Shown here: positions 1-12,651 of the stretch, piece by piece
How the letters are laid out: every line of letters starts with the position of its first letter
Position numbering within the stretch: position 1 is the first letter of the stretch
DNA from: Calditrichia bacterium
GTDB taxonomy: Bacteria; Calditrichota; Calditrichia; RBG-13-44-9; J075
Length of the DNA stretch: 64,000 nucleotides
Assembly: GCA_965227145.1 (NCBI GenBank)
Contig: OZ245730.1
Span: forward strand, 3,086,187-3,150,186
Direction of reading: 5' to 3'
Notes under the pieces: generated by a model
What the model was told of the DNA's origin: nothing
What the model saw: only the letters and a program-made list of their open reading frames with translations
The model's database searches: none
Position numbers and translations under genes: made by a program

Positions 1-645
1 TTCAGTATTTTCAGCAATTTCACCGATGAATGGTTGGTAAAATGTTTCCAGTGCGGGATCTTTCAGCCATTGCGGCGGCGATACTTTTTTGCTATCCGAA
101 GATTCCAGAATTTCAAAAATTGTGCGCCGTAAGTCGGGAATGCCTTCCCCTTTGCTGCCGATAACCGGAATTACGGTAATCGCCAACGATGCCGCAAGTT
201 CATCAATGTTGATTTCGATGCCGTGCGCTTTGGCAACATCCACCATATTCAGCGCCAGCAATGTCGGCTTGTTGAGCTCCAGCAATTGGCTGACCAGATA
301 CAAATTCCGGTTCAGGTTACTGGCATCTGCAACAACGACAATCAGATCAAGCGCATCATCTGAATACAGCGTTTCAACGGCAATTTCTTCGTCCAGCGAT
401 TGCGGGTTCAGGCTGTATAATCCGGGCAGATCGATAACTTCAACCTTTGCACCACCGGGCGAAATGAGCATGCCCGATTTTTTTTCAACCGTAACGCCTG
501 GATAATTACCCACTTTTTGGCGCAATCCGGTTAGTGCATTAAACACGGAAGTTTTGCCAGTGTTTGGGTTGCCCACAAGAGCAACCCGGAATTTTTTTAT
601 GGAAAATGACTGGTGTGCCGTCAGGTTTTCAACATTTACCGACAT
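1..645 (-). CDS. feoB: Ferrous iron transporter FeoB, N-terminal GTPase domain (partial; rest of gene lies beyond window start)
   Basis: Own minus-strand translation from ATG at 645..643: MSVNVENLTAHQSFSIKKFRVALVGNPNTGKTSVFNALTG...VGNYPGVTVEKKSG (P-loop plus FeoB G-domain signature). Sits 8 nt downstream of feoA. Track ORF 89..505(+) is a low-complexity shadow ORF. Confidence 0.8.
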   Translation of the reverse strand, partial: MSVNVENLTAHQSFSIKKFRVALVGNPNTGKTSVFNALTGLRQKVGNYPGVTVEKKSGMLISPGGAKVEVIDLPGLYSLNPQSLDEEIAVETLYSDDALDLIVVVADASNLNRNLYLVSQLLELNKPTLLALNMVDVAKAHGIEINIDELAASLAITVIPVIGSKGEGIPDLRRTIFEILESSDSKKVSPPQWLKDPALETFYQPFIGEIAENTE

Positions 646-653
646 CGATAGCG

Positions 654-887
654 TTATCCCTTTTCAACTAAAATAGAACGGGCAACATCCTTCCGGATCG
701 AAAGGTTATAGCCCCGGAAACGAATTTCCATCGGATCACCCAACGGTGCAAACTTGATCAACTTTACCGGTGTGCCTTCCAGAAGCCCCATTTCCATCAG
801 ACAGTTGGTATCGCTGGTGCAGTTGCAATATTCCCGGATAACGCAACATTCGCCCGGTTTCAATTTGTCCAGAGAGTCTTGATTCAT
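654..887 (-). CDS. feoA: Ferrous iron transport protein A (FeoA)
   Basis: 77-aa ORF, FeoA-like size and pattern (GDPMEIRFRGYNLSIR), immediately upstream of feoB on the same strand. Confidence 0.75.
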   Translation of the reverse strand: MNQDSLDKLKPGECCVIREYCNCTSDTNCLMEMGLLEGTPVKLIKFAPLGDPMEIRFRGYNLSIRKDVARSILVEKG

Positions 888-1182
888 TATTTAGCCCCAA
901 ACTAAAAAATTAATATTAAACCCCTCAGTAACTATTTACGACACAATTTAGATGGTTGAACGGTTTTTTTCAACACTGTTCGAGAATAAGAATAATTCTC
1001 CATTATCCCCGAAAATACCGGACAAGTTTTGGTGAATAATAGCTTTACGGCATCCTGAAAATTTCGCTGTCCGAAACCGGTTTCACGAACCAATTTCAAT
1101 TTAAGTTTCCAAAAACAATTTTTAATATCGGTAAATAATTTGCTGTTTCTGACAGCGTCTATTATATTTACGGAATCTGTAT

Positions 1183-2739
1183 ATGACCGTTGAAAATATG
1201 ACTATTGAACATTCATTCTTCGAAAGGCCTGCGGTGCAATCATTTTTCCGGAACCAACACAGTTTTCAGATTTTTGTTGAAACTGCGTCTCATGCGATTA
1301 TTGTCAGTAATTCGACGGGTAAAATTGAATACGCGAATGAATCTGCAGCAAAATTACATTTGTGCAACAGGGATGAGTTGATCGGGCAACCCGCAGAATT
1401 GCTTATTCCGGAACGGCTTCGCGAACAGTATCAACAATATATTTCAAAAACACCGTTGAACAATCACCAAAATACCCACACCCACCGGCTGGATACGTTT
1501 GCCCTCCGGTCAGACGGATCGGAAATTCCGGTTGATATCAACCTGAACCGTATCGAAATCGATGACGAATACTATCTCATCAGTTTTATTTCGGAAATCA
1601 GTCGCCGAAAAGAAGTGGAAAACGCGCTTCGGGAAAGTGAAGCCCGCTATCGCGGATTGTTTGAAGATGATTTAACCGGAAATTTTATCATGGACGGGCA
1701 GGGCAATATTTTGATGTGTAATCCGGCATTCGCCAAATTGTTCGGATTTGAAAATCCCCGGGTTGCCCAATATTCCGATTTTATGGAACGCTTTACCGAC
1801 GATGAAGCCCGGACAGAATTTATTGAAGAATTACACCGCCGCAAAAAACTTGCCCTTTACGAAATTACGCTCCGAAAAACCGATGGCAAGTTGATTTACG
1901 TGCTTGCAAATCTCGTCGGCAATTTCAACGACGCCGGAAAATTGACCGGAATGAAAGGCTATTTGCTGGATATCAGCCGCCGCCGGGAAATTGAAGCGCA
2001 GTTTCTGCAAGCCCAAAAAATGGAAAGTTTGGGCATTTTGGCGGGCAGCATCGCGCATGATTTCAGCAATTTTGTATCGGTCATCGAAGGGTATGCGGAA
2101 ATCATTTTGATGAAAATGGATGAAACCGATCCGATGCGAAATTTTGTTGAAAAAATACAGCAAACCAACAAACAGGCCGGTTTGTTAATCAAACAAATAC
2201 AGGCATTTAGCAGAAGACAGGAAGCACTGTTAATGCGCATCGATCCCAACTACGCCATCCGGGAAATTAAAGAAATACTTGACCGGTTGATTGGGAAAAA
2301 AATCAATTTTCAGCTGCATTGCGGCGTGGATATCGGCACTATCATCGCAGATCCGGTTCAACTAGAGCAAGCCATTATGAATCTGGCAGTGAACGCCCGC
2401 GATGCCATGCCAAATGGCGGCACGCTCACCGTTCGGACCTATCGCACAAAACTCGGCGAATCGGATGTACTCCACAGCGAAGCCGAGCCGGGCGAATTTG
2501 TGTGCATCGAAATTCAGGATACCGGAATCGGGATGGACGAAGAAACCAAATCGCACATTTTTGAACCTTTTTTCACCACAAAACCGCGCGGCAAAGGCAC
2601 AGGTTTGGGACTTTCGACAGTTTACGGGATTATCAAACAAAGCCACGGGCATATCAGCGTAACATCTTTTCCGGAAAAAGGCACCACTTTCAGGATGTTT
2701 TTCCCGATTGTTCCGATTGAAAATGTGGAACGCGTGTAA
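1183..2739 (+). CDS. PAS-domain sensor histidine kinase (no transmembrane segment evident)
   Basis: 518-aa ORF: N-terminal PAS-like region, H-box SIAHDFSNF, HATPase_c motifs NLAVNARDAM, DTGIGMD, GTGLGLS. Confidence 0.9.
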   Translation: MTVENMTIEHSFFERPAVQSFFRNQHSFQIFVETASHAIIVSNSTGKIEYANESAAKLHLCNRDELIGQPAELLIPERLREQYQQYISKTPLNNHQNTHTHRLDTFALRSDGSEIPVDINLNRIEIDDEYYLISFISEISRRKEVENALRESEARYRGLFEDDLTGNFIMDGQGNILMCNPAFAKLFGFENPRVAQYSDFMERFTDDEARTEFIEELHRRKKLALYEITLRKTDGKLIYVLANLVGNFNDAGKLTGMKGYLLDISRRREIEAQFLQAQKMESLGILAGSIAHDFSNFVSVIEGYAEIILMKMDETDPMRNFVEKIQQTNKQAGLLIKQIQAFSRRQEALLMRIDPNYAIREIKEILDRLIGKKINFQLHCGVDIGTIIADPVQLEQAIMNLAVNARDAMPNGGTLTVRTYRTKLGESDVLHSEAEPGEFVCIEIQDTGIGMDEETKSHIFEPFFTTKPRGKGTGLGLSTVYGIIKQSHGHISVTSFPEKGTTFRMFFPIVPIENVERV

Positions 2740-2933
2740 CGCTCCGGCAGGCAAATTATGATCATTTAAAGCGGTTTCATATCGCATTTTATAGCGCAAT
2801 CCTCACAAATTTTTAACCCATCCCCTCCCCTGTTTTTCGGTTTCCTGTCAATTTTGTGTGTGAAAATTGTAATTTTTCGGCTATATTAATCGAATAATTT
2901 TATTAACGCTAAACCCGGAATTTTAGTTGAGTT

Positions 2934-3893
2934 ATGAAAGAAGTTGCCTTTCTAAAACTGAATGCCGAAAAATGGAAAAAGCTGGAAGGGTTACTGAACA
3001 ATTCCGAACCGGTGGACGCAGATATTTACGCCGGTTTATTTCTGGAAATTACTGACGATCTCTCATTTGCCCGCACCCATTTTCCCGGCAGCAAAACAAC
3101 GCAATACCTCAACGGTTTGGCCGGAAAACTGCATCAGGAAATTTATCGCAATAAACGAACCGACAAAAACCGCATCATCAATTTTTGGAAAACCGAACTT
3201 CCGACACTTTACGCCAACCATCGCAAATCCTTGCTTTACAGCTTTCTGATTTTTGCAATTGCGGTGATGATCGGCACCCTTTCCACGCTGAATGACAATA
3301 CTTTTGTCCGGCTGATTTTGGGTGACGGCTATGTGAACATGACCGAACACAACATCGAAAAAGGCGATCCGCTGGCTGTTTACAAAGATGCCCGGCAACT
3401 GCAAATGTTTTTTGGAATTACTTTGAACAATATCCGGGTGTCTTTTCTCTGTTTTAGTGCAGGCATTTTACTATCGGTCGGAACCGCTTTTATGCTGTTT
3501 TTTAACGGCGTGATGTTGGGAACTTTCCACACTTTTTTTTATCTGAATTCGTTGTTGGGCGAGTCGTTACTGGTTATTTATATTCACGGTGCGCTGGAAA
3601 TTTCGGCAATCATCATCGCCGGTAGCGCCGGATTGGTGTTAGGCAACAGCATTTTGTTTCCCGGCTCATTTACCCGACGGGAATCGCTGCAACGCGGCGC
3701 GAAAGACGGTTTGAAAATCGCCATCGGGCTGGTGCCGGTTTTCATTGTTGCCGGATTTCTGGAATCATTTGTGACCCGGTACACCGAAATGCCGGTTGCT
3801 TTGAGCCTGCTGATTATTTTGGGCTCGCTCGCATTTATCGGATTTTATTTTATCGCATATCCTGCTTATCTGAACCAAAAGGCAAAAAAATGA
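2934..3893 (+). CDS. Integral membrane protein, SpoIIM-like (stage II sporulation protein M / DUF95 family)
   Basis: 319-aa ORF with several hydrophobic helices and a YIHGALEISAIIIAG segment; first gene of the conserved MoxR-containing cluster. Confidence 0.5.
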   Translation: MKEVAFLKLNAEKWKKLEGLLNNSEPVDADIYAGLFLEITDDLSFARTHFPGSKTTQYLNGLAGKLHQEIYRNKRTDKNRIINFWKTELPTLYANHRKSLLYSFLIFAIAVMIGTLSTLNDNTFVRLILGDGYVNMTEHNIEKGDPLAVYKDARQLQMFFGITLNNIRVSFLCFSAGILLSVGTAFMLFFNGVMLGTFHTFFYLNSLLGESLLVIYIHGALEISAIIIAGSAGLVLGNSILFPGSFTRRESLQRGAKDGLKIAIGLVPVFIVAGFLESFVTRYTEMPVALSLLIILGSLAFIGFYFIAYPAYLNQKAKK

Positions 3894-4798
3894 ACATGAC
3901 TGAACAAATTGATTTTCGCCAAACCCGCGATTTCAGTCAGGTACTGACCGAAACATTCAACTTTGTCCGCCAGAATATCAAAATTCTGGGGACACATTTG
4001 GTTATCGTAATGGGATTTCCGGCAGTTTTGGTAGGTTTTCTCACCGAATACTGGACGCCGAATGCAACCGATTTTCAAACATCCGGATTCGATTTTCTCG
4101 ATTATTATGCGGCACTGCTGCCGCTTTATTTAATCGCAATGTTGTTGAGCATTTTTTATTCCTGCCTGATTTACGCTTACACAATGTTGTATATCGAACG
4201 CGGATTCGACCAGTTCGAAACGCGCGATGTGTTCAATTATGCCAGCCGCTATTTGCTGAAGGCAACCATTGCATCGCTGCTTTCTTTTGTGTTTTTGATG
4301 GTTGCGGTTGTGATGTTTATCTTGCCGTTTTTTTATATTCTGGTACCACTGTCATTTTTATATATCGTTATTTTTAATGAAGATAAAGGTATTTTTGAAT
4401 CCATTTCCCGCTGTTTCGAAGTGGTTTCCGGTAACTGGTGGAACACTTTTGGATTGATCATTTTGCTCGGCGTGATTGTTTACATGCTCACCATTGCGGT
4501 TTCCGTGCCGCAAATTTTGATGGGCGTTTTCATCGAATTCAACGCCGCAAAAAATGAAGATATCGAAATGTATAAACTGATTTCGGCATTTTTGGGCGTT
4601 TTTACCAATTTAGCGGGATACCTCATTTTTCTCATTTTTCATTTTGGGATTATTTTCCAGTATTTCAGTTTGGTGGAACAAAAGGAAGTTCCCGGACTGC
4701 TTCGCCGCATCGATTCCATCGCCCAATCGGAAGAACCCGATGGCGAATCGCCGCCGGCGGCGATAGATTCCAACGCATCACCCGGAGACAAAGAATAG
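3890..4798 (+). CDS. Multi-pass membrane protein, function unknown
   Basis: 302-aa ORF, strongly hydrophobic segments; start overlaps previous stop by 4 nt (operon-like). Confidence 0.6.
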   Translation: MNMTEQIDFRQTRDFSQVLTETFNFVRQNIKILGTHLVIVMGFPAVLVGFLTEYWTPNATDFQTSGFDFLDYYAALLPLYLIAMLLSIFYSCLIYAYTMLYIERGFDQFETRDVFNYASRYLLKATIASLLSFVFLMVAVVMFILPFFYILVPLSFLYIVIFNEDKGIFESISRCFEVVSGNWWNTFGLIILLGVIVYMLTIAVSVPQILMGVFIEFNAAKNEDIEMYKLISAFLGVFTNLAGYLIFLIFHFGIIFQYFSLVEQKEVPGLLRRIDSIAQSEEPDGESPPAAIDSNASPGDKE

Positions 4799-4801
4799 CC
4801 G

Positions 4802-5521
4802 ATGATGCAACGTTTACCCATTTTAAGAATCGCTATTTTATTGTTTTTATTGCTTTTACCTGTCTATTCAAATTCTGACAGCGTTACGACAGATTCCAGC
4901 AACATCGACATACGCCTGCCCAACGAACAGCAAATCGAAAGCTTTCGCAACAACCCGGATTTCAATTACGATCGCAAAAACAAAACCGGCGTTTCGCTAT
5001 TTGAGCGCGCCGAAGCATGGTTTTGGGAAAAAGTGCTGCAATTTCTGTTGATGCCCGGATATTCCTGGCTGCGATATTTGATCCTCTATTCTTTTATCGC
5101 GCTGGCGTTCGGCTACGCCTATTACAAATTGCGCGGTCAGCAATGGCAGGCGTTATTCGCGGAAAAAAGCGATCTCTCGGTCCGGTTCAGCGAGCATCCC
5201 GAAAACTTACAAACGCTGGATTTGCCCGCGCTCATCCGCGAGGCGGAGCAGCAACAACAGTTCCGGTTGGCGGTTCGCTGGCAATTTTTGAAAATTCTCA
5301 AAGAATTGGAAACCGCCGGAATGATCCGCTGGCACCCTCACAAAACCAATCGCGCATATCTTTCCGAGTTGGGCGACACAGCCGTTCAGCACGATTTTTC
5401 GGAAATTATCGCCGTTTTCGAATATGCCTGGTATGGTCATTTTGATGTGGAAGCAAATCAGTATCAACGCGTTTCCACACAATTTTCTCATTTTCGAAAT
5501 GAAATAAAAACAACGGTTTAA
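4802..5521 (+). CDS. DUF4129-like membrane-anchored protein
   Basis: 239-aa ORF with N-terminal hydrophobic leader (LPILRIAILLFLLLLPVYS) and internal TM. Family assigned from position in the cluster, not from a motif. Confidence 0.45.
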   Translation: MMQRLPILRIAILLFLLLLPVYSNSDSVTTDSSNIDIRLPNEQQIESFRNNPDFNYDRKNKTGVSLFERAEAWFWEKVLQFLLMPGYSWLRYLILYSFIALAFGYAYYKLRGQQWQALFAEKSDLSVRFSEHPENLQTLDLPALIREAEQQQQFRLAVRWQFLKILKELETAGMIRWHPHKTNRAYLSELGDTAVQHDFSEIIAVFEYAWYGHFDVEANQYQRVSTQFSHFRNEIKTTV

Positions 5522-6717
5522 TGAAGAATAAACGCAACATTTTGATCGCTGTAATTTTGGGTATTTTGCTGCTCACGTATCTGGAAACACGGGCGCCAAA
5601 AGCGATCAACAAAACACCCAGCTTTTCGCGATACGATAAAATTCCGTTCGGGAGTTTTGTTGTGCACGAATTTCTTACTGATTTTTTCCCCTCGGGCGAT
5701 ATTTTCGAAAACAATCTGCCGTTGCTGCACACACTCGCGGACCTATCAGAAGACGATACGCCAAATTTTCTGTTTATCGATCTCAAATTGGAATTCGACC
5801 GTTTTGAAACTGAAGCAATGATGGATTTTACCAAACGCGGCGGCAATATTTTTCTCGCAGCGGAACGCTTTCGCGGAAAACTTGCCGATACGTTGAACAT
5901 TTCTACCAGCTTTTTCCCGATGGACATCTCCGATTCGTTGCAATTGCAATTTACCAGCCCGTTTTTGCAGGCAGATTCCGGCTATCGTTTCCGGCACGAT
6001 AACGCCGGGATTTACTTCACCGGATTCGATTCCAGCCGGACGATTATTTTGGCGACAAATTCTCAACAAAAAGTAACCCTGCTGCGCATTCCGAACGGCG
6101 ACGGGCAGTTTATTTTTAGCTCAACGCCATTTATTTTTACCAATTATAATATGTTGCTGGCAGAAAATTCCCGGTTTATCGCCACTGCGCTGTCATTTTT
6201 GAACGATACCGATGTGTATTGGGACGAATATTACAAAGAACGCCGCCGGATGTTTCGAACACCGATTCGTTTTATTCTCAGCCAGCCGGCGTTGAAAAGC
6301 GCATATTTTATTATTTTGTTGGGTGTTTTGCTGTTTATCATTTTTCAAGGTCGCCGGAAACAGCGCATCATTCCGGTGATTAACCCGTTGCAAAACACCA
6401 CTTTGGAATTTGTGAATATTGTCGGCAGGTTGTATTTTAACCAGCGTGACCACAAAAAAATGGCGCAGAAAAAAATCAATCATTTTCTGGAATTTTTGCG
6501 GGAAAATTACCGGGTGAACACCGCCGAAATAACACCGGAATTGCACGAAACGCTCGCCCGGAAAACCACTCGCCCACTGGCGGAAATTGAGAATTTGTTT
6601 AATTTTTTCGCCGCAATCGGCGATTCCAGACAAATCAGCGTGCAGGAATTGTTGAAACTCAACCGGATGATCGAATCCTGGTATCCGATAACGGAATCGA
6701 TCCAACGCACAGAATAA
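5521..6717 (+). CDS. DUF4350-like protein (N-terminal signal/anchor)
   Basis: 398-aa ORF directly upstream of MoxR ATPase; start overlaps previous stop. Family assigned by neighbourhood and size. Confidence 0.45.
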   Translation: MKNKRNILIAVILGILLLTYLETRAPKAINKTPSFSRYDKIPFGSFVVHEFLTDFFPSGDIFENNLPLLHTLADLSEDDTPNFLFIDLKLEFDRFETEAMMDFTKRGGNIFLAAERFRGKLADTLNISTSFFPMDISDSLQLQFTSPFLQADSGYRFRHDNAGIYFTGFDSSRTIILATNSQQKVTLLRIPNGDGQFIFSSTPFIFTNYNMLLAENSRFIATALSFLNDTDVYWDEYYKERRRMFRTPIRFILSQPALKSAYFIILLGVLLFIIFQGRRKQRIIPVINPLQNTTLEFVNIVGRLYFNQRDHKKMAQKKINHFLEFLRENYRVNTAEITPELHETLARKTTRPLAEIENLFNFFAAIGDSRQISVQELLKLNRMIESWYPITESIQRTE

Positions 6718-6730
6718 GGAAGCTTAACAA

Positions 6731-7711
6731 ATGGATGAATTATCAAAACACCCGCCGAGAGTGGATGTCGGCGATTTGCAGGAAGCCCGGAAACGCATCC
6801 GCGCGGAAATTCGCAAAATTATTGTCGGTCAGGAAAATATGGTCGATTTGCTCATTGCCGCGCTGTTGGCGGATGGACATGTGCTCATCGAAGGCGTGCC
6901 CGGCGTCGCCAAAACGCTGGCTGCACGGCTGCTGGCGCGCACCCTTTCCGTCGCGTTCGGGCGCATCCAGTTTACGCCGGATCTGATGCCGTCGGATATT
7001 TTGGGTACCAACGTTTTCAACCAAAGCAGCGCGAAATTCGAATTTAATCACGGACCGATATTTGCGAATATTGTGCTCATCGACGAAATCAATCGTGCGC
7101 CGGCAAAAACGCAAGCTGCGCTATTTGAGGTGATGGAAGAACGCCAAATCACGATGGATGGCAAATTGTATCCGATGGATCAGCCGTTTATGGTGGTCGC
7201 CACCCAAAATCCGGTTGAGCACGAGGGCACCTATCGCCTGCCGGAAGCACAGCTGGACCGGTTCCTGTTTAAAATTTCGGTGCCGTATCCCGATCTCGAT
7301 CAAGAAAAACATATTTTGCGGGAATTTCACGAACGCGGGAATCGCAACGATCTCAACAGCATCCAACCGGTACTGAGCGCGGCGGAAATTTTAGCGTTGA
7401 AAGCAAAAGTTCGCGCCATTCATATCGAGGAAAAATTGCTGGATTATATCGCCACATTTGCCGACCAAACCCGCAATCACCCGTCGCTGTATTTGGGCGC
7501 ATCGCCACGGGCGTCGTTGGCATTGCTGACCGCAGCAAAAGCGATGGCCGCGCTGCGCAACCGCGATTTTGTAACGCCGGAAGATATTCAGGATGTGATT
7601 ACGCCAACGCTGCAACACCGGCTGCTGCTCACACCAGAGAAAGAAATGGAAGGGCAAACCACGGAAGTTGTTATCCGGGATATTTTACAGCGGCTGGAAA
7701 TTCCGCGTTAA
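6731..7711 (+). CDS. MoxR-family AAA+ ATPase
   Basis: 326 aa; Walker A GVPGVAKT, Walker B VLIDEINRA, typical MoxR segments RIQFTPDLMPSDILG and ATQNP. Confidence 0.9.
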   Translation: MDELSKHPPRVDVGDLQEARKRIRAEIRKIIVGQENMVDLLIAALLADGHVLIEGVPGVAKTLAARLLARTLSVAFGRIQFTPDLMPSDILGTNVFNQSSAKFEFNHGPIFANIVLIDEINRAPAKTQAALFEVMEERQITMDGKLYPMDQPFMVVATQNPVEHEGTYRLPEAQLDRFLFKISVPYPDLDQEKHILREFHERGNRNDLNSIQPVLSAAEILALKAKVRAIHIEEKLLDYIATFADQTRNHPSLYLGASPRASLALLTAAKAMAALRNRDFVTPEDIQDVITPTLQHRLLLTPEKEMEGQTTEVVIRDILQRLEIPR

Positions 7712-7714
7712 ATT

Positions 7715-9061
7715 ATGAAATCTATGCTCCAAATGATCAAAAATTTATATCTGGCACCGCGATTGTATCAGGCAATCGGCGCAGTTGCCGTGCTGCACAT
7801 TCTCAGCTATTTTTTCCGCTCGCTGACGTTCGTTGCGGAAATTGCCGGAGTGACACTGCTATTTTTTTCGCTGATTGACATGGTGCTGCTTTTTCGCCAA
7901 AACAATGTCATTATTGCGCGGAGGGAATTGCCGGAACGGTTATCCAACGGGGATGAAAACAACGTCCGGATTTTTATCGAAAATCGATTTGCATTCCAAA
8001 TTCAAACAACCCTATTAGATGAGTTGCCATTCCAATTTCAGATTCGCGATGCCGGATACGATGTCGAGTTGTCCCCGGGAGAAACGCGCCATATTTCCTA
8101 TACGTTGCGTCCGGTGGCGCGCGGCGAATATCATTTCGGCACGTTAAATGTTTACGTTTCAACGCCGGTTGGTTTGATCAAACGGCGCTTTCGCTTCGAA
8201 TCGGATGGCGCGATGGTTCCCGCATATCCCTCGTTTATCCAGATGCGCAAATATGAATTGATGGCGATTTCCAACCGGCTGACCGAAGCGGGCATCAAAA
8301 AAGTGCGCCGGATCGGGCACACAATGGAGTTCGACCAGATTCGCGAATACGTTCGCGGCGACGACCACCGCACCATCAACTGGAAAGCCACAGCCCGCAA
8401 ACGGGCGCTGATGGTCAACCACTATCAGGATGAACGGTCGCAACAGGTTTACAGTGTGATTGATATGGGGCGGGTGATGCAGATGCCGTTCAACGAATTG
8501 TCGCTGCTGGATTATGCCATCAACGCCAGTTTGGTGATTTCTAACATCGCATTGCTGAAACAGGATCGCGCTGGCATCATCACATTTTCCCATAAAGTTG
8601 GCAGTATTTTACCGGCGGAACGCACGCCCGGACAAATGCGCAAAGTAATGGAAACGCTTTACAACCAGCGAACTGATTTTCTGGAATCGGATCACCAGTC
8701 TGTGTATCTCACGCTGTTGCGCAGGCTGAATCAACGCAGCCTGATTTTACTGTTCACCAATTTTGAAACACTCACCGCGTTAAAACGGCAGCTCACGTAT
8801 TTGCGGCGTATTGCCCGGCGCCATTTGCTGGTCGTGATTTTTTTTGAAAATACCGAATTGAAGGGTATTTTGCACAGCGCTGCGGAATCCCCGGAAATGG
8901 TTTACCGCAAAACAATTGCCGAGCAATTTGCCTATGAAAAACGGCAAATTGTCAAAGAATTACAGCGTTCCGGTATTTTTGCGATTCTGACATCACCTGA
9001 AAATTTAACGGTTGCAACCATCAATCAATATCTGCAGCTAAAAGCGCGCGGATTGATTTAA
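7715..9061 (+). CDS. DUF58 domain protein (MoxR partner, vWA-like)
   Basis: 448 aa; N-terminal TM pair then DUF58-like core (EYVRGDDHRTINWKATARKRALMVNHYQDE); immediately follows MoxR. Confidence 0.75.
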   Translation: MKSMLQMIKNLYLAPRLYQAIGAVAVLHILSYFFRSLTFVAEIAGVTLLFFSLIDMVLLFRQNNVIIARRELPERLSNGDENNVRIFIENRFAFQIQTTLLDELPFQFQIRDAGYDVELSPGETRHISYTLRPVARGEYHFGTLNVYVSTPVGLIKRRFRFESDGAMVPAYPSFIQMRKYELMAISNRLTEAGIKKVRRIGHTMEFDQIREYVRGDDHRTINWKATARKRALMVNHYQDERSQQVYSVIDMGRVMQMPFNELSLLDYAINASLVISNIALLKQDRAGIITFSHKVGSILPAERTPGQMRKVMETLYNQRTDFLESDHQSVYLTLLRRLNQRSLILLFTNFETLTALKRQLTYLRRIARRHLLVVIFFENTELKGILHSAAESPEMVYRKTIAEQFAYEKRQIVKELQRSGIFAILTSPENLTVATINQYLQLKARGLI

Positions 9062-9093
9062 CCATCGCAATAAAGCAGGATACATATTTTCTG

Positions 9094-9816
9094 ATGAACC
9101 GTGTGAACATCTCCACTACCCAAAATGTTTCCATTTCATACGAAATTGCCAATATCGGCGAGCGGATTTTGGCTACTCTGATCGACTGGTTTATCCTGTT
9201 GGGATTTGCATTTGCGATGTTATTTCTATCGAGCAACGCCATTATTCCCGGCGATATCACCGGTTGGGCAGTATTGTTTATTATCGGATTTTATGACCTG
9301 GTTTGCGAAATAACCATGAACGGGCAAAGCATCGGGAAGCGGGCGCGGAACATCAAAGTTGCCAAACTGGACGGTTCACAACCGACATTGAGCAGTTATT
9401 TATTGCGCTGGATGTTGCGGTTGGTTGATTTTACGATTACTTCCGGGGCTGGCGCCATTCTGTCAATTTTGTTTACATCCACCGGACAACGGCTTGGGGA
9501 TCTGGCAGCCGGCACAACTGTCATCAAAATTGGGCAGAATGTATCGCTTTCCGATACAATTTTAACCCGAATTGCGGACGATTATCAACCGACATTCCCG
9601 CAAGTGCATCAGTTGACCGATGAAGATGCGGCGATCATCAAAGAAGTGCTGAACACCGCACCGCGACTGCCGGACGCCAAAACCCGCCGATTGGTGATCC
9701 GCAAAGCGGCAGAACAGATTGCCCTCAAAATGGGATTGGCACCGGATTTGGCACCGGAAATGTTTCTCGACACCGTTTTAAAAGATTACAATCATTACAA
9801 CGGCACCGTTGAATAA
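9094..9816 (+). CDS. RDD-family membrane protein
   Basis: 240 aa; RDD hallmarks NGQSIGKRARNIKV and GQRLGDLAAGTTVIK with flanking TM helices. Confidence 0.75.
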   Translation: MNRVNISTTQNVSISYEIANIGERILATLIDWFILLGFAFAMLFLSSNAIIPGDITGWAVLFIIGFYDLVCEITMNGQSIGKRARNIKVAKLDGSQPTLSSYLLRWMLRLVDFTITSGAGAILSILFTSTGQRLGDLAAGTTVIKIGQNVSLSDTILTRIADDYQPTFPQVHQLTDEDAAIIKEVLNTAPRLPDAKTRRLVIRKAAEQIALKMGLAPDLAPEMFLDTVLKDYNHYNGTVE

Positions 9817-9831
9817 TCCACCCAAACAAAA

Positions 9832-11016
9832 TTAATACAGCAAAAATGACTTGCGGATTTCTTCAAATTCCGCTGTTTCCGGCAGCCAGCGTGCCTCCAT
9901 TTCCGCTAACGGTGCCTGTGCTTCCAGCATTTGGCGCAGCCAGTCGTTAGATGCCAGAATATCGAACGGCAATTTGATATATTCATATTCGTATGGCGGA
10001 TTTTTCCACCCGAAATCATCCGGGTAAAGATGAATCATTTCCCGCAGCAGCGCAATAGTCGTCAAAAAGGGTTTGAACGTTTGGCGATTTACCACATGTA
10101 TAAAACAGCCACCGCAAACCTCATCCGCAAATTTGTGGAATGTCGGCTGAAACAGCAGCGGACGAAACACAACACCCGGTAAACGATACGATTGCATGGC
10201 TTCGGCAAATTGCCAGCCATCCACAAATGCCGCCCCAAACAGCTCGAACGGACGTGTTGTACCCCGCCCTTCGGAAATATTAGTAGCTTCCAGCAAACAT
10301 TGACCGGGATAAACAACCGTGCTTTCCGTTACAGGAATATTTGGCGACGGCATCGCAAAAGGTAATCCGGTTGCTTCGAAATACATATCGCGTTTCCAGC
10401 CCTGCATTTCCACAACCGACAACTGGCAATCGGGATAAAAAAAGTGTTGCAAATATTTGGCGATCTCCCCGATGGTCAACCCGTGGCGAATAGCCATATC
10501 GTGCCAACCCACAAAGCTGGTGAACTCGCCGTGGCGAAACGGACCTTCCACCTGAGTGCCGCCAATCGGGTTGGGGCGATCGAGCACAACAACTTCGATA
10601 TTGTTCTCCTGACAAGCTTCCATGCAAAGCGCCATCGTCCAGATAAACGTATAATATTTTGCGCCGACATCCTGCAGATCAATGACGAGCACTTCCAGCC
10701 CGTCCAGCATTTTTTGGGTCGGTTTGCGGTTTTCACCATACAACGAGTAAACCGGCACCATTGTCCGTGGATCTTTAAATCCGCCTTCCCATTCAATCAT
10801 ATTGTCCTGGGTATGTCCCCAAAGTCCGTGTTGCGGGCCAAACAGCGCATTTAGCGACAATTTGCCGGACTGATGTGCCGAATGGAACAAATCGACAGCG
10901 TGTTCCAGCGATCCGGCAACGGATGCCTGATTGCAAACCAGCCCGGTTTTACGCCCTTTGAACAAATTGAAATTGTTTTTTTTAAGGATATCCAATCCTG
11001 TCAAAACCTGCATCAC
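9832..11016 (-). CDS. DUF1343 / NamZ-like exo-beta-N-acetylmuramidase family protein
   Basis: 394 aa; VYSLYGE, LVIDLQDVGAKYYTFI, VVVLDRPNPIGG, IRHGLTIGE match the DUF1343 pattern. Confidence 0.8.
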   Translation of the reverse strand: MMQVLTGLDILKKNNFNLFKGRKTGLVCNQASVAGSLEHAVDLFHSAHQSGKLSLNALFGPQHGLWGHTQDNMIEWEGGFKDPRTMVPVYSLYGENRKPTQKMLDGLEVLVIDLQDVGAKYYTFIWTMALCMEACQENNIEVVVLDRPNPIGGTQVEGPFRHGEFTSFVGWHDMAIRHGLTIGEIAKYLQHFFYPDCQLSVVEMQGWKRDMYFEATGLPFAMPSPNIPVTESTVVYPGQCLLEATNISEGRGTTRPFELFGAAFVDGWQFAEAMQSYRLPGVVFRPLLFQPTFHKFADEVCGGCFIHVVNRQTFKPFLTTIALLREMIHLYPDDFGWKNPPYEYEYIKLPFDILASNDWLRQMLEAQAPLAEMEARWLPETAEFEEIRKSFLLY

Positions 11017-11449
11017 AAACCCTTTCTATATTCAACATACACCGATATTATTGAAAAGAAACCGTGCTGTTGCAACAAACGGTTACTGTTTTTCTCGAAT
11101 TATTGAACATCAGCCCAACACTTTGGGATTTTTTTACTGATCCGGTTAAACATTTTTTATCATCATAAACAACACTATTGATTGCAAAAAAAACTTCTCA
11201 AAGAAGATTCCGGATTGTATATTTTTCGCACCCGGAAAACAAAATGCTTTCTGCGTTTTTATATGAGAATTATCCGGAATTATGTAATAATTTAATACAT
11301 TTAATTGATCGTTAATCAATATTACCTTACAATTTATATTAAAGCGGCGGCAACGCAACACCATTTTCTCAATTAATCGGATGACAAAAATTCATACGGG
11401 GTGAGAACTTTACCGTAATAATTCCAATTATCTAACCAAAAAGCAAATT

Positions 11450-12049
11450 ATGATTGAACACATTATTTTTGATCTGGGCAATGTGCTGATTGATATTCAC
11501 CCCGAAAAAACGATTGCAGAACTTGCCGGACGCACCGGTAAATCCCCATCGGAACTGCAAGATTTTTTTCTATCGCCAACCCATTTAAATTTCATGAACG
11601 GAACGCTTTCTCCCACCGAATTTTACCGTGAATTTGTTAACCGGTACGACTGCCAGATCAGCTACTACCATTTTGCGGCAATTTGGAAACGGCTTATTGG
11701 CGAGCCAAAAACCGGTATTGCATCACTTATTCACAAGCTATCCGGAAAATATACATTGAGTGTTTGTTCAAATACGGATCCGCTTCACTGGCGGGTTGCC
11801 CAAAAAAATTGCACTTTCTTCATCAATTTCAATTACTTTTTTCTCTCCTACAAACTCAATTTATTGAAGCCGGAAACAACCATATATCACACCATGCTTA
11901 AATCGCTAAAAACGGTACCCGAAAAATGCGTATTTATCGATGATACACGCGAAAACATCCAATCCGCCAAATCCATCGGTATCCACGCTATTCACGCCGA
12001 CACTATTGAAACGATGCTAATTGAATTATCAAAAAGAGAAGTATTATAA
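11450..12049 (+). CDS. HAD-superfamily hydrolase
   Basis: 199 aa; N-terminal motif I IIFDLGNVL and C-terminal FIDDTREN motif. Confidence 0.8.
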   Translation: MIEHIIFDLGNVLIDIHPEKTIAELAGRTGKSPSELQDFFLSPTHLNFMNGTLSPTEFYREFVNRYDCQISYYHFAAIWKRLIGEPKTGIASLIHKLSGKYTLSVCSNTDPLHWRVAQKNCTFFINFNYFFLSYKLNLLKPETTIYHTMLKSLKTVPEKCVFIDDTRENIQSAKSIGIHAIHADTIETMLIELSKREVL

Positions 12050-12651
12050 ATATCTAATTTTTAAGAATAGTATTTGATATTCGCATTAAAAGTTTGTAAT
12101 ATATCAGAAGTGATCAACGGAACATTTTTATATTTAGGTCTCTGGTATTTCATTCTATTATGTATTCTCAATATTACTCTTCATATCATTTTTTTATAAG
12201 CTCCTGGATGGGATATATTTGAATTAATATCATTCATTCCAGTTGAGTTTCAATTCTACTCCTGATTCACTCTGTACTTCATTTTACGAATCTTTGCAAA
12301 TAGAATTGTCTTTCCAGATAATTTTATGTGCCTTAATGGTGCCCAACTCAGAAAAAAAATATCAGCTGTTACCAATCATAAATATTTTATTTACAAATAT
12401 TTATAGTATTTCTAATATCCATAGCAACTTTAAAAATGAAGGGAGTTGTTTTTAAGCATACTATCTGAATAAAATGACCGAAAGCATTCAAGCCTGGTAA
12501 ATTATTTGCGATAATGAAAAGTATTCTCATCAGCCTGTTGGGCTCACTTTTAATGATTTGGCTTTACCAATCCAACCATTTATTGTCAAACAGGCATACC
12601 GGAAAAGTTAGCCGGCAGTTCTATTTCAAATAGTCAAAAACAGGTTACGCA

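Follow-up and report, generated by a model that had tools for sequence, protein, structure and literature searches.

The window analysed here, a stretch of 64,000 nucleotides (nt) from contig OZ245730.1 of a Calditrichia bacterium, contains a single operon encoding seven proteins: in order, a SpoIIM-like membrane protein (g1), a multi-pass membrane protein (g2), a DUF4129 protein (g3), a DUF4350 protein (g4), an ATPase of the MoxR group (g5), a DUF58 protein (g6) and an RDD protein (g7). We hold with high confidence that this is a real, conserved and self-contained membrane-associated MoxR/DUF58 operon composed of three sub-modules. Few AAA+ modules without a known job are as widespread as MoxR-DUF58 pairs; the existence of the cluster will not surprise a specialist, and the seven-gene module offers a broad and tractable entry point into the function of such pairs.

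The genes are co-directional and tightly packed, with overlaps of 4 nt at the g1/g2 junction and 1 nt at g3/g4, and gaps of 3 nt (g2/g3), 13 nt (g4/g5), 3 nt (g5/g6) and 32 nt (g6/g7). A preceding reading of the DNA from its letters alone (hereafter the sequence-only reading) had placed seven such genes at 2934-9816, and the open reading frames (ORFs) bear out these coordinates exactly. Independent gene calls on two Logan contigs from the same organism yield the same seven products. No paralogues of any of the seven genes were found elsewhere in the window.

Families were assigned from Pfam matches, counted only above the curated cut-offs. The matches are SpoIIM for g1 (1.6e-37), DUF4129 for g3 (9.8e-10), DUF4350 for g4 (4.7e-13), AAA_3 (PF07726, 2.7e-63) with AAA_lid_2 (PF17863, 5.3e-25) for g5, DUF58 (PF01882, 8.1e-20) for g6 and RDD for g7 (3.7e-14). 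Annotation of each ORF with profile hidden Markov models (HMMs) thus confirms every family named in the sequence-only reading, including those of g3 and g4, which it had drawn from a memory of similar gene neighbourhoods. The only gene of the seven without an above-threshold family is g2, with a sub-threshold DUF7847 match alone. Its description as a multi-pass membrane protein nevertheless holds, since its positional orthologues match GPDPase_memb (14 of 32) or, in the others, UPF0259, DUF7544, DUF4013, DUF975 or EI24; judged by these matches, g2 is a multi-pass protein of a loose GPDPase_memb/UPF0259/DUF975/EI24-like group. Its sequence changes quickly, no more than 12 homologues being retrieved by a word-seeded search, and it ends in an acidic C-terminal tail. 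Median identities to the window's proteins are 60% for g5, 56% for g6, 56% for g1 and 41% for g7, with a lower tier of 35% for g4, 27% for g3 and 25% for g2.

The distribution of the cluster was surveyed with a pattern derived from a 7-sequence alignment, scanned against one genome per species. At least 599 stretches were found, and for 566 of them kinship with g4 was confirmed. The best 80 stretches belong to Calditrichota, KSB1, Ignavibacteriota, Bacteroidota, Balneolales/Rhodothermota and Chlorobiota, together with a few oddly labelled metagenome-assembled genomes (MAGs). A g4 profile retrieved 4,557 cluster representatives at 50% identity (2,960 of them at E<=1e-30), and a search with g1 returned at least 6,800 matches, those among the matches listed being 59-67% identical to the window, plus one near-identical. 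The closest named relative of g4, from a Calditrichaeota MAG, is 96% identical.

Gene order was then compared by running iterated HMMs, built from the seven window proteins, against the ORFs of the 80 best loci; a locus was taken as untruncated if at least 1.5 kb of sequence lay beyond both ends of the detected genes (57 loci). The seven-gene arrangement is far beyond chance, because 43 of these 57 loci, all from the Fibrobacterota-Chlorobiota-Bacteroidota (FCB) group, hold the same seven families contiguously. Two layouts account for the major lineages: the order of the window, 1-2-3-4-5-6-7, in Calditrichota, KSB1 and Ignavibacteriota, and 7(divergent)-1-2-3-4-5-6, in which the RDD gene lies divergently upstream of g1, in Bacteroidota, Balneolales and Chlorobiota. 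Between neighbouring genes of the array the median distances range from -20 to +3 nt, and the MoxR and DUF58 genes are adjacent in every locus that holds both. The flanking genes, by contrast, are common only within single lineages (at most 11 of 80 loci), and neither the histidine kinase nor the NamZ gene that border the operon in the window is found again next to the cluster elsewhere; the conserved unit therefore consists of the seven genes alone. That the cluster is syntenic elsewhere, as the sequence-only reading supposed, is thus evident from FCB genomes and, as described below, from Prevotella and from Rhizobium and Paracoccus plasmids.

Two irregularities were seen among these loci. 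Two loci (L004, 7333-9167, and L040, 7320-9250) carry two tandem copies of g2 within otherwise standard clusters. In isolate SMAG_U10414, a Cyclobacteriaceae MAG, two contigs (L061 and L065) each carry a complete cluster at near-identical coordinates, which reflects a duplication or else a mixture of strains in the bin.

The 14 untruncated loci with an incomplete set mostly break at the borders of three blocks, and the cluster accordingly divides into three sub-modules: [RDD, SpoIIM-like, g2], [DUF4129, DUF4350] and [MoxR, DUF58]. Six loci (L009, L022, L024, L028, L037 and L059) have g3 and g4 alone, two (L060 and L076) have g7-g1-g2-g3-g4 without MoxR-DUF58, and one (L012) has g1-g2-g3-g4 without MoxR, DUF58 or RDD. 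The first block is further tied together by a fusion on a plasmid of Bernardetia sp. Wsw4-3y2 (L083, 9001-10854), where g1 and g2 form one annotated coding sequence of 617 amino acids (aa), matched by the g1 HMM over residues 1-317 (E=7e-138) and by the g2 HMM over residues 331-615 (E=8e-16). The RDD gene lies divergently upstream of this fusion, and no DUF4129, DUF4350, MoxR or DUF58 gene is nearby. Such a Rosetta-stone fusion argues for a physical interaction of g1 and g2.

In the Microscillaceae loci L009, L024 and L059 (~9200-11460), which have only g3 and g4, the g4 homologue is ~485 aa long and bears an extra hydrophobic C-terminal tail. In these three loci the pair has unrelated neighbours, namely a WG-repeat/TPR protein, a regulator of the AraC type and a CHU_C adhesin of 1,737 aa.

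Beyond the loci of the genome scan, a Prevotella chromid holds the full Bacteroidota layout, and a tblastn search with g1 matched 49 Rhizobium plasmids. On Rhizobium phaseoli pRphaR630b (L082, 3563-10901) the co-directional genes encode, in order, two DUF805 proteins, hypothetical proteins of 251 and 423 aa, MoxR, DUF58, SpoIIM and RDD, and those from the second DUF805 gene through RDD overlap or abut. The MoxR, DUF58, SpoIIM and RDD products are recognised by the FCB-derived HMMs, and the two hypothetical proteins match DUF4129 (3e-4) and DUF4350 (2.6e-6) just below the Pfam cut-offs. The Rhizobium cluster thus contains the same families, DUF4129-DUF4350-MoxR-DUF58-SpoIIM-RDD, as the window. 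It differs in that SpoIIM and RDD follow DUF58, whereas SpoIIM comes first in the window, and in that two DUF805 genes stand upstream in place of a homologue of the GPDPase_memb-like g2. Identities to the window are low (25% for g1, 25% for g6 and 18% for g4), and a conserved juxtamembrane motif of g4, described below, is reduced to R..R..P. A SpoIIM homologue is present on 53 Rhizobium and 2 Paracoccus plasmids, and in 53 of these 55 it is >80% identical to the Rhizobium query.

The tblastn searches of plasmids, with g4, g1 and the Rhizobium SpoIIM as queries, returned only Prevotella, Bernardetia, Rhizobium and Paracoccus, with no actinobacterial or archaeal copies, so the mycobacterial and archaeal links rest on the literature. 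By published annotation, the family set of the mycobacterial Rv3689-Rv3695 (moxR2) region matches that of the window: the Mycobacterium chelonae orthologues of Rv3689, Rv3691, Rv3692, Rv3693, Rv3694c and Rv3695 are a membrane protein, DUF4350, MoxR, DUF58, SpoIIM and RDD, respectively, with SpoIIM and RDD after DUF58 as in Rhizobium, and all are repressed together, with log2 fold changes between -6.2 and -7.8; DUF4129 is absent from the published list (PMC8191103). The gene set apparently recurs in hundreds of bacterial species, mycobacteria included.

Judged by its motifs, the g5 product is a MoxR-proper AAA+ ATPase. It has Walker A (G55-x4-K61-T62), Walker B (D118-E119), sensor 1 (N160), an arginine finger (R177) and sensor 2 (R260), and the segments GVPGVAKT, LIDEINR, ATQNP, LDRF and GASPRAS are each at least 90% conserved among 68 sequences. 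Its nearest solved structure is 2R44 (Cytophaga CHU_0153, 3.2e-83). This protein was considered as a possible cluster MoxR and judged a paralogue, being ~50% identical to a Cytophagales cluster MoxR and to a non-cluster MoxR alike. A second, paralogous MoxR was also observed in a Bacteroidota MAG (L063, 3777-4751, minus strand), ~1.7 kb from the cluster RDD gene; its score is 405 bits, compared with 540 or more for the full-length orthologues. In the same locus the ORF at 1671-2990 was rejected as a Bat-type DUF58 protein (16% identity and a poor alignment to the DUF58 set); from a reading of its sequence, it may be a Der/EngA-like GTPase.

The partner of this ATPase, g6, begins with a hydrophobic transmembrane (TM) hairpin at ~10-63 whose flanks are rich in lysine and arginine, which puts the remainder of g6 on the cytoplasmic side; the cytoplasmic region ahead of the DUF58 match is assumed to be a beta-sandwich. 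Its von Willebrand factor A (vWA)-like character is weak: VWA_2 matches the window protein at E=0.005, below the cut-off, and the Rhizobium orthologue at 1e-5. At the position of the MIDAS (metal-ion-dependent adhesion site) the sequence is D-x-G-R-x-M, not D-x-S-x-S, in 61 FCB orthologues, Prevotella and Rhizobium (VIDMGRVM in the window, VIDKGRVM in Prevotella and CVDSGRLM in Rhizobium), and strand 4 ends in TNFE in FCB genomes. No solved relatives of g6 were found in the PDB, by sequence or by a 33-sequence profile. The only vWA-like protein of the cluster is g6, and it has no MIDAS motif. The view in the sequence-only reading that MoxR-DUF58 pairs are thought to remodel vWA-type substrates needs correction, the vWA-type protein being the adaptor rather than the substrate in characterised MoxR systems.

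The two middle proteins are bitopic. From alignment and family-averaged hydropathy, g3 consists of a signal peptide, a periplasmic segment of ~60 aa with conserved D31, R38, Y56 and W73, a TM segment at ~86-108 and a cytoplasmic DUF4129 domain with conserved K181-T182-N183 and Y211-G212. For g4 the architecture comes from an AlphaFold2 (AF2) model with a predicted local distance difference test (pLDDT) score of 82.5 (Table 1). Its ectodomain has a non-catalytic GIFT (GldG/IFT52/OST48)/GATase1-like fold and is without conserved cysteine or histidine. The most conserved parts of g4 are the segments flanking TM2. The conserved motif just inside the membrane has the low pLDDT that is typical of a partner-binding peptide, and it is plausibly a docking peptide. 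The idea that the cytoplasmic bundle of g4 is a hidden DUF4129 domain was rejected (hhalign of g3 against g4, probability 2%).

Of the polytopic proteins, g1 has a cytoplasmic N-terminal helical domain of ~95 residues that belongs to the recent Pfam family DUF8413 (PF28475), followed by a six-TM SpoIIM/DUF95 domain (PF01944). N165, N166, N191, H218, E222, E277 and R282 are its invariant polar residues, and its AF2 model has a pLDDT of 85.4. The RDD protein g7 has invariant R24, D31 and D136 and a C-terminal domain of ~110 aa that, by charge counts, may be periplasmic; a relationship of this domain to DUF8413 of g1 was considered and rejected (hhalign probability 0.1%).

Table 1. Positions of the operon genes, neighbouring features and predicted parts of g4 (nucleotide positions are those of the window; aa, amino acids).
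Feature	Location	Strand	Length	Remark
g1	2934-3893	+	319 aa	
g2	3890-4798	+	302 aa	
g3	4802-5521	+	239 aa	
g4	5521-6717	+	398 aa	
g5	6731-7711	+	326 aa	
g6	7715-9061	+	448 aa	
g7	9094-9816	+	240 aa	
PAS-PAS-HisKA-HATPase sensor kinase	1183-2739	+		directly upstream of the cluster
Promoter-like site GTGAAA-16-TATATT	2860-2887	+		candidate; weak consensus match; inside the 194-nt spacer
Exo-beta-N-acetylmuramidase NamZ gene	9832-11016	-		convergent; starts 16 nt past g7
g4 TM1	residues 2-24			AF2 model
g4 alpha/beta ectodomain (periplasmic, DUF4350)	residues ~46-235			AF2 model
g4 TM2	residues 256-275			AF2 model
g4 disordered juxtamembrane motif	residues 277-293			AF2 pLDDT <50; conserved
g4 cytoplasmic helical bundle	residues 295-385			AF2 model

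A spacer of 194 nt separates the upstream histidine kinase from g1 and holds a T-run preceded by a weak hairpin. Across the region, promoter-like sites are no more numerous than expected from shuffled sequence, so the one in the spacer is a candidate only. On the other side of the histidine kinase lies an iron-uptake locus: the window starts, on the minus strand (1-887), inside feoB (~1-645), followed by feoA (~654-887; positions by offset from the gene calls of contig L084). The stretch at ~11000-12650 is AT-rich (GC content 0.33-0.37 versus 0.42-0.51 in the operon) and includes an ORF-free gap at 12050-12651; no Rfam family was matched over window positions 1-12500. Within the operon, GC content is ~0.50 over g5-g6 (6500-9000) versus 0.42-0.46 over g1-g4 (2934-6500), which parallels the stronger protein conservation of MoxR and DUF58.

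As to function, we tentatively propose, as a possibility short of probable in both its mechanism and its envelope role, that the operon encodes a MoxR motor tethered to the membrane, which would assemble or switch a complex of the inner membrane, and that this complex would act on the cell envelope. The analysis shows how the genes are built, which families they belong to, their synteny and modularity, the fusion of g1 with g2, the folds and the conserved motifs; the binding partners, the direction of action and the cellular process we infer as follows. The motor would be the MoxR ATPase g5, held at the inner face of the membrane by g6; the bitopic g3 and g4 would be transducers or clients; and the polytopic core would be formed by the SpoIIM-like g1, its physical partner g2 and the RDD protein g7. 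The DUF58 adaptor would present the cytoplasmic parts of g3 and g4, plausibly residues 277-293 of the latter, to the MoxR ring, and ATP hydrolysis would assemble, disassemble or switch the membrane complex. This would in turn control an activity at the outer side of the cytoplasmic membrane, for example envelope or septal remodelling, or export. We do not think that the module matures a soluble enzyme.

Support for an envelope role is circumstantial and comes from four sides. In Bacillus, SpoIIM serves as a scaffold for septal peptidoglycan hydrolases, and a part in membrane remodelling has been predicted for homologues (PMC5898192). Clusters for the maturation and export of circular bacteriocins have DUF95/SpoIIM proteins as a hallmark, alongside a second polytopic protein. 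GIFT proteins such as GldG and OST48 are accessory subunits of membrane machines (PMC5898192). Finally, when the divisome-associated Rv0954 is purified from Mycobacterium tuberculosis (Mtb), both the SpoIIM-like Rv3694c and Rv3695, an RDD protein, are recovered with it (PMC8093794).

Several points weigh against the proposal of an envelope-acting motor. Full-text literature searches found no study of the seven-gene module, in keeping with the statement in the sequence-only reading that its function is not established. The Mtb co-immunoprecipitation is a single mass-spectrometry list of many membrane proteins (PMC8093794), and the mycobacterial link itself comes from published annotation, not from sequences analysed here. 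In characterised MoxR/vWA pairs, clients are bound through the MIDAS motif; the DUF58 protein lacks it, so its adaptor role is an analogy, and the likeness to ViaA, NorD and CbbO may not hold. The SpoIIM-like fold of g1 has no structural relative in the PDB; scaffold, enzyme and transporter roles are therefore indistinguishable. The C-terminal domain of g7 may face either side of the membrane. In its most specific form the proposal would describe an ATP-driven envelope machine common to FCB bacteria, rhizobial plasmids and mycobacteria (Mtb Rv3689-Rv3695), in which a MIDAS-less DUF58 protein couples MoxR to DUF4129 and DUF4350 proteins and so gates or assembles a SpoIIM-like/EI24-like/RDD core at the septum or cell wall, or for export; with all these elements taken together, we consider it unlikely.

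Among the alternatives, the one that survives best is a new protein-secretion system with g4 as its GldG-like periplasmic component. A secretion or membrane-remodelling role has been predicted for archaeal neighbourhoods in which arCOG01314 (DUF4350) lies next to a COG0714 ATPase and a vWA protein, and SpoIIM homologues lie next to vWA and COG0714 proteins in several bacteria (Makarova et al. 2015; PMC5898192). DUF4350, the COG0714 ATPase and a vWA-like protein are common to both settings, the GIFT fold of g4 is in line with the prediction, and most components are membrane proteins. However, neither secreted or S-layer/Ig-like cargo, nor an outer-membrane component, nor a channel-forming family was detected within the cluster or beside it; translocase activity is not known for MoxR ATPases; and the cluster occurs in both diderm and mycolate envelopes. 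We find a dedicated secretion system doubtful, and note that it overlaps with the envelope-acting motor rather than excluding it.

Somewhat more doubtful still is a chaperone of MoxR/vWA type that matures a membrane enzyme encoded elsewhere, by cofactor insertion or inhibitor removal in the manner of NorQ/NorD, CoxD/CoxE and CbbQ/CbbO. As far as the references cited in one source go (PMC11834572), this is the best-documented mechanism of MoxR proteins, and the ATPase motifs of g5 are intact. Yet no enzyme gene is linked to the cluster in any lineage, the MIDAS metal site is absent from g6, and the MoxR-DUF58 pair is accompanied by five conserved membrane partners that bear no catalytic signature.

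A Bat-type (Bacteroides aerotolerance) operon, protecting from oxidative or thermal stress as in Bacteroides fragilis, Riemerella and Francisella, would agree with the host's place in the FCB group and with the MoxR and DUF58 genes that begin Bat operons (PMC11834572). It is very unlikely on the evidence of the other genes: Bat operons have the vWA proteins BatA/BatB and the TPR proteins BatC/BatE, whereas Pfam finds no BatA/BatB-type vWA membrane protein (VWA, BatA_N) in g1-g4, g7 or the flanks and no TPR protein in the cluster, where DUF4129, DUF4350, SpoIIM and RDD are the neighbours instead. The cluster MoxR is, moreover, a distinct paralogue, to judge by the lower score of the second MoxR of L063 and the identity of ~50% to 2R44.

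As an anti-phage or conflict system, of the ternary MoxR-vWA type, the operon is scarcely credible. Conflict systems do include MoxR-vWA modules (PMC12067865), and g5 has a weak bpMoxR match in Pfam (1.6e-12). PADLOC, however, gives g5 only generic AAA+ similarity (IetA, 2e-5) and nothing significant for the other six, the one further match, of g3 to LmuC, lying at the E=0.01 threshold. The cluster also has housekeeping-like traits: between phyla-level lineages the core proteins share 56-60% identity, each major lineage keeps a stable gene order, and most plasmid-borne SpoIIM homologues are, as given above, >80% identical to the Rhizobium query; no effector domain (nuclease, protease or toxin) is present.

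The chance that this is a sporulation or gliding-motility locus, with the names SpoIIM (PF01944 in g1) and GldG (the GIFT-like fold of g4) taken at face value, is negligible: no SpoIID or SpoIIP was found in the cluster or flanks, which the search covered, no GldA/GldF ABC genes lie in or near the cluster, which itself contains no ABC family, and the carriers (Calditrichota, Ignavibacteria, Prevotella, Rhizobium and mycobacteria) are not known to form endospores or, for the most part, to glide.

The neighbourhood is already partly known, from Makarova et al. 2015 (PMC5898192) and from mycobacterial annotation (PMC8191103), and the proteins are routinely annotated; the window thus contributes a further member, of Calditrichota origin, to a known, uncharacterised kind. 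What we did not find in the literature is a definition that spells out the seven families, that of g2 and DUF8413 among them; the division into three sub-modules; the fusion of g1 with g2; a DUF58 protein devoid of MIDAS; the disordered yet conserved motif in g4; and the SpoIIM-like fold without a solved relative. The present analysis adds a parts list with topology, sub-modules, a fusion, a candidate docking peptide and a MIDAS-less adaptor. If true, the envelope-machine reading would supply five DUF-type families with a function in one stroke; in its most specific form, which we consider unlikely, it would also define a new functional class for MoxR ATPases and assign the SpoIIM/DUF95 fold its first role outside sporulation.

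Compared with the archaeal arCOG01314 neighbourhoods, the window is alike in that g4 has an N-terminal anchor, a GldG-like ectodomain and a C-terminal TM segment, directly followed by g5 and g6. It differs in that the archaeal set includes Ig-like/S-layer membrane proteins (arCOG02884 and relatives), for which the window products and flanks give no such Pfam match, and DUF4129, RDD, the family of g2, the division into three sub-modules and the fusion of g1 with g2 do not figure in the published description (Makarova et al. 2015; PMC5898192). The systems RavA-ViaA, NorQ-NorD and CbbQ-CbbO resemble the cluster in joining an AAA+ MoxR ring to a vWA-type partner encoded by an adjacent gene. ViaA, NorD and CbbO, however, use a MIDAS and act on a known enzyme, whereas g6 has D-x-G-R-x-M in its place, is anchored in the membrane and has no enzyme client linked to it.

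Triads of MoxR, DUF58 and a transglutaminase are represented by Pseudomonas TgpA and by Bacillus subtilis yeaC-yeaD-yebA, and TgpA-type transglutaminases may end in a DUF4129 domain. Such triads are common, a further example being aaa-atp/duf58/tgm of the Bifidobacterium PFNA cluster, and like the operon of the window they have a MoxR-proper gene and then a DUF58 gene, followed in the triads by one for a polytopic membrane protein (PMC6803598). They differ in having a transglutaminase, Transglut_core matching none of the seven window products. If TgpA-type proteins carry DUF4129, this domain may be a recurrent partner of MoxR-DUF58; in the window it resides on the small bitopic g3, and the extracytoplasmic domain comes from a GIFT-domain protein.

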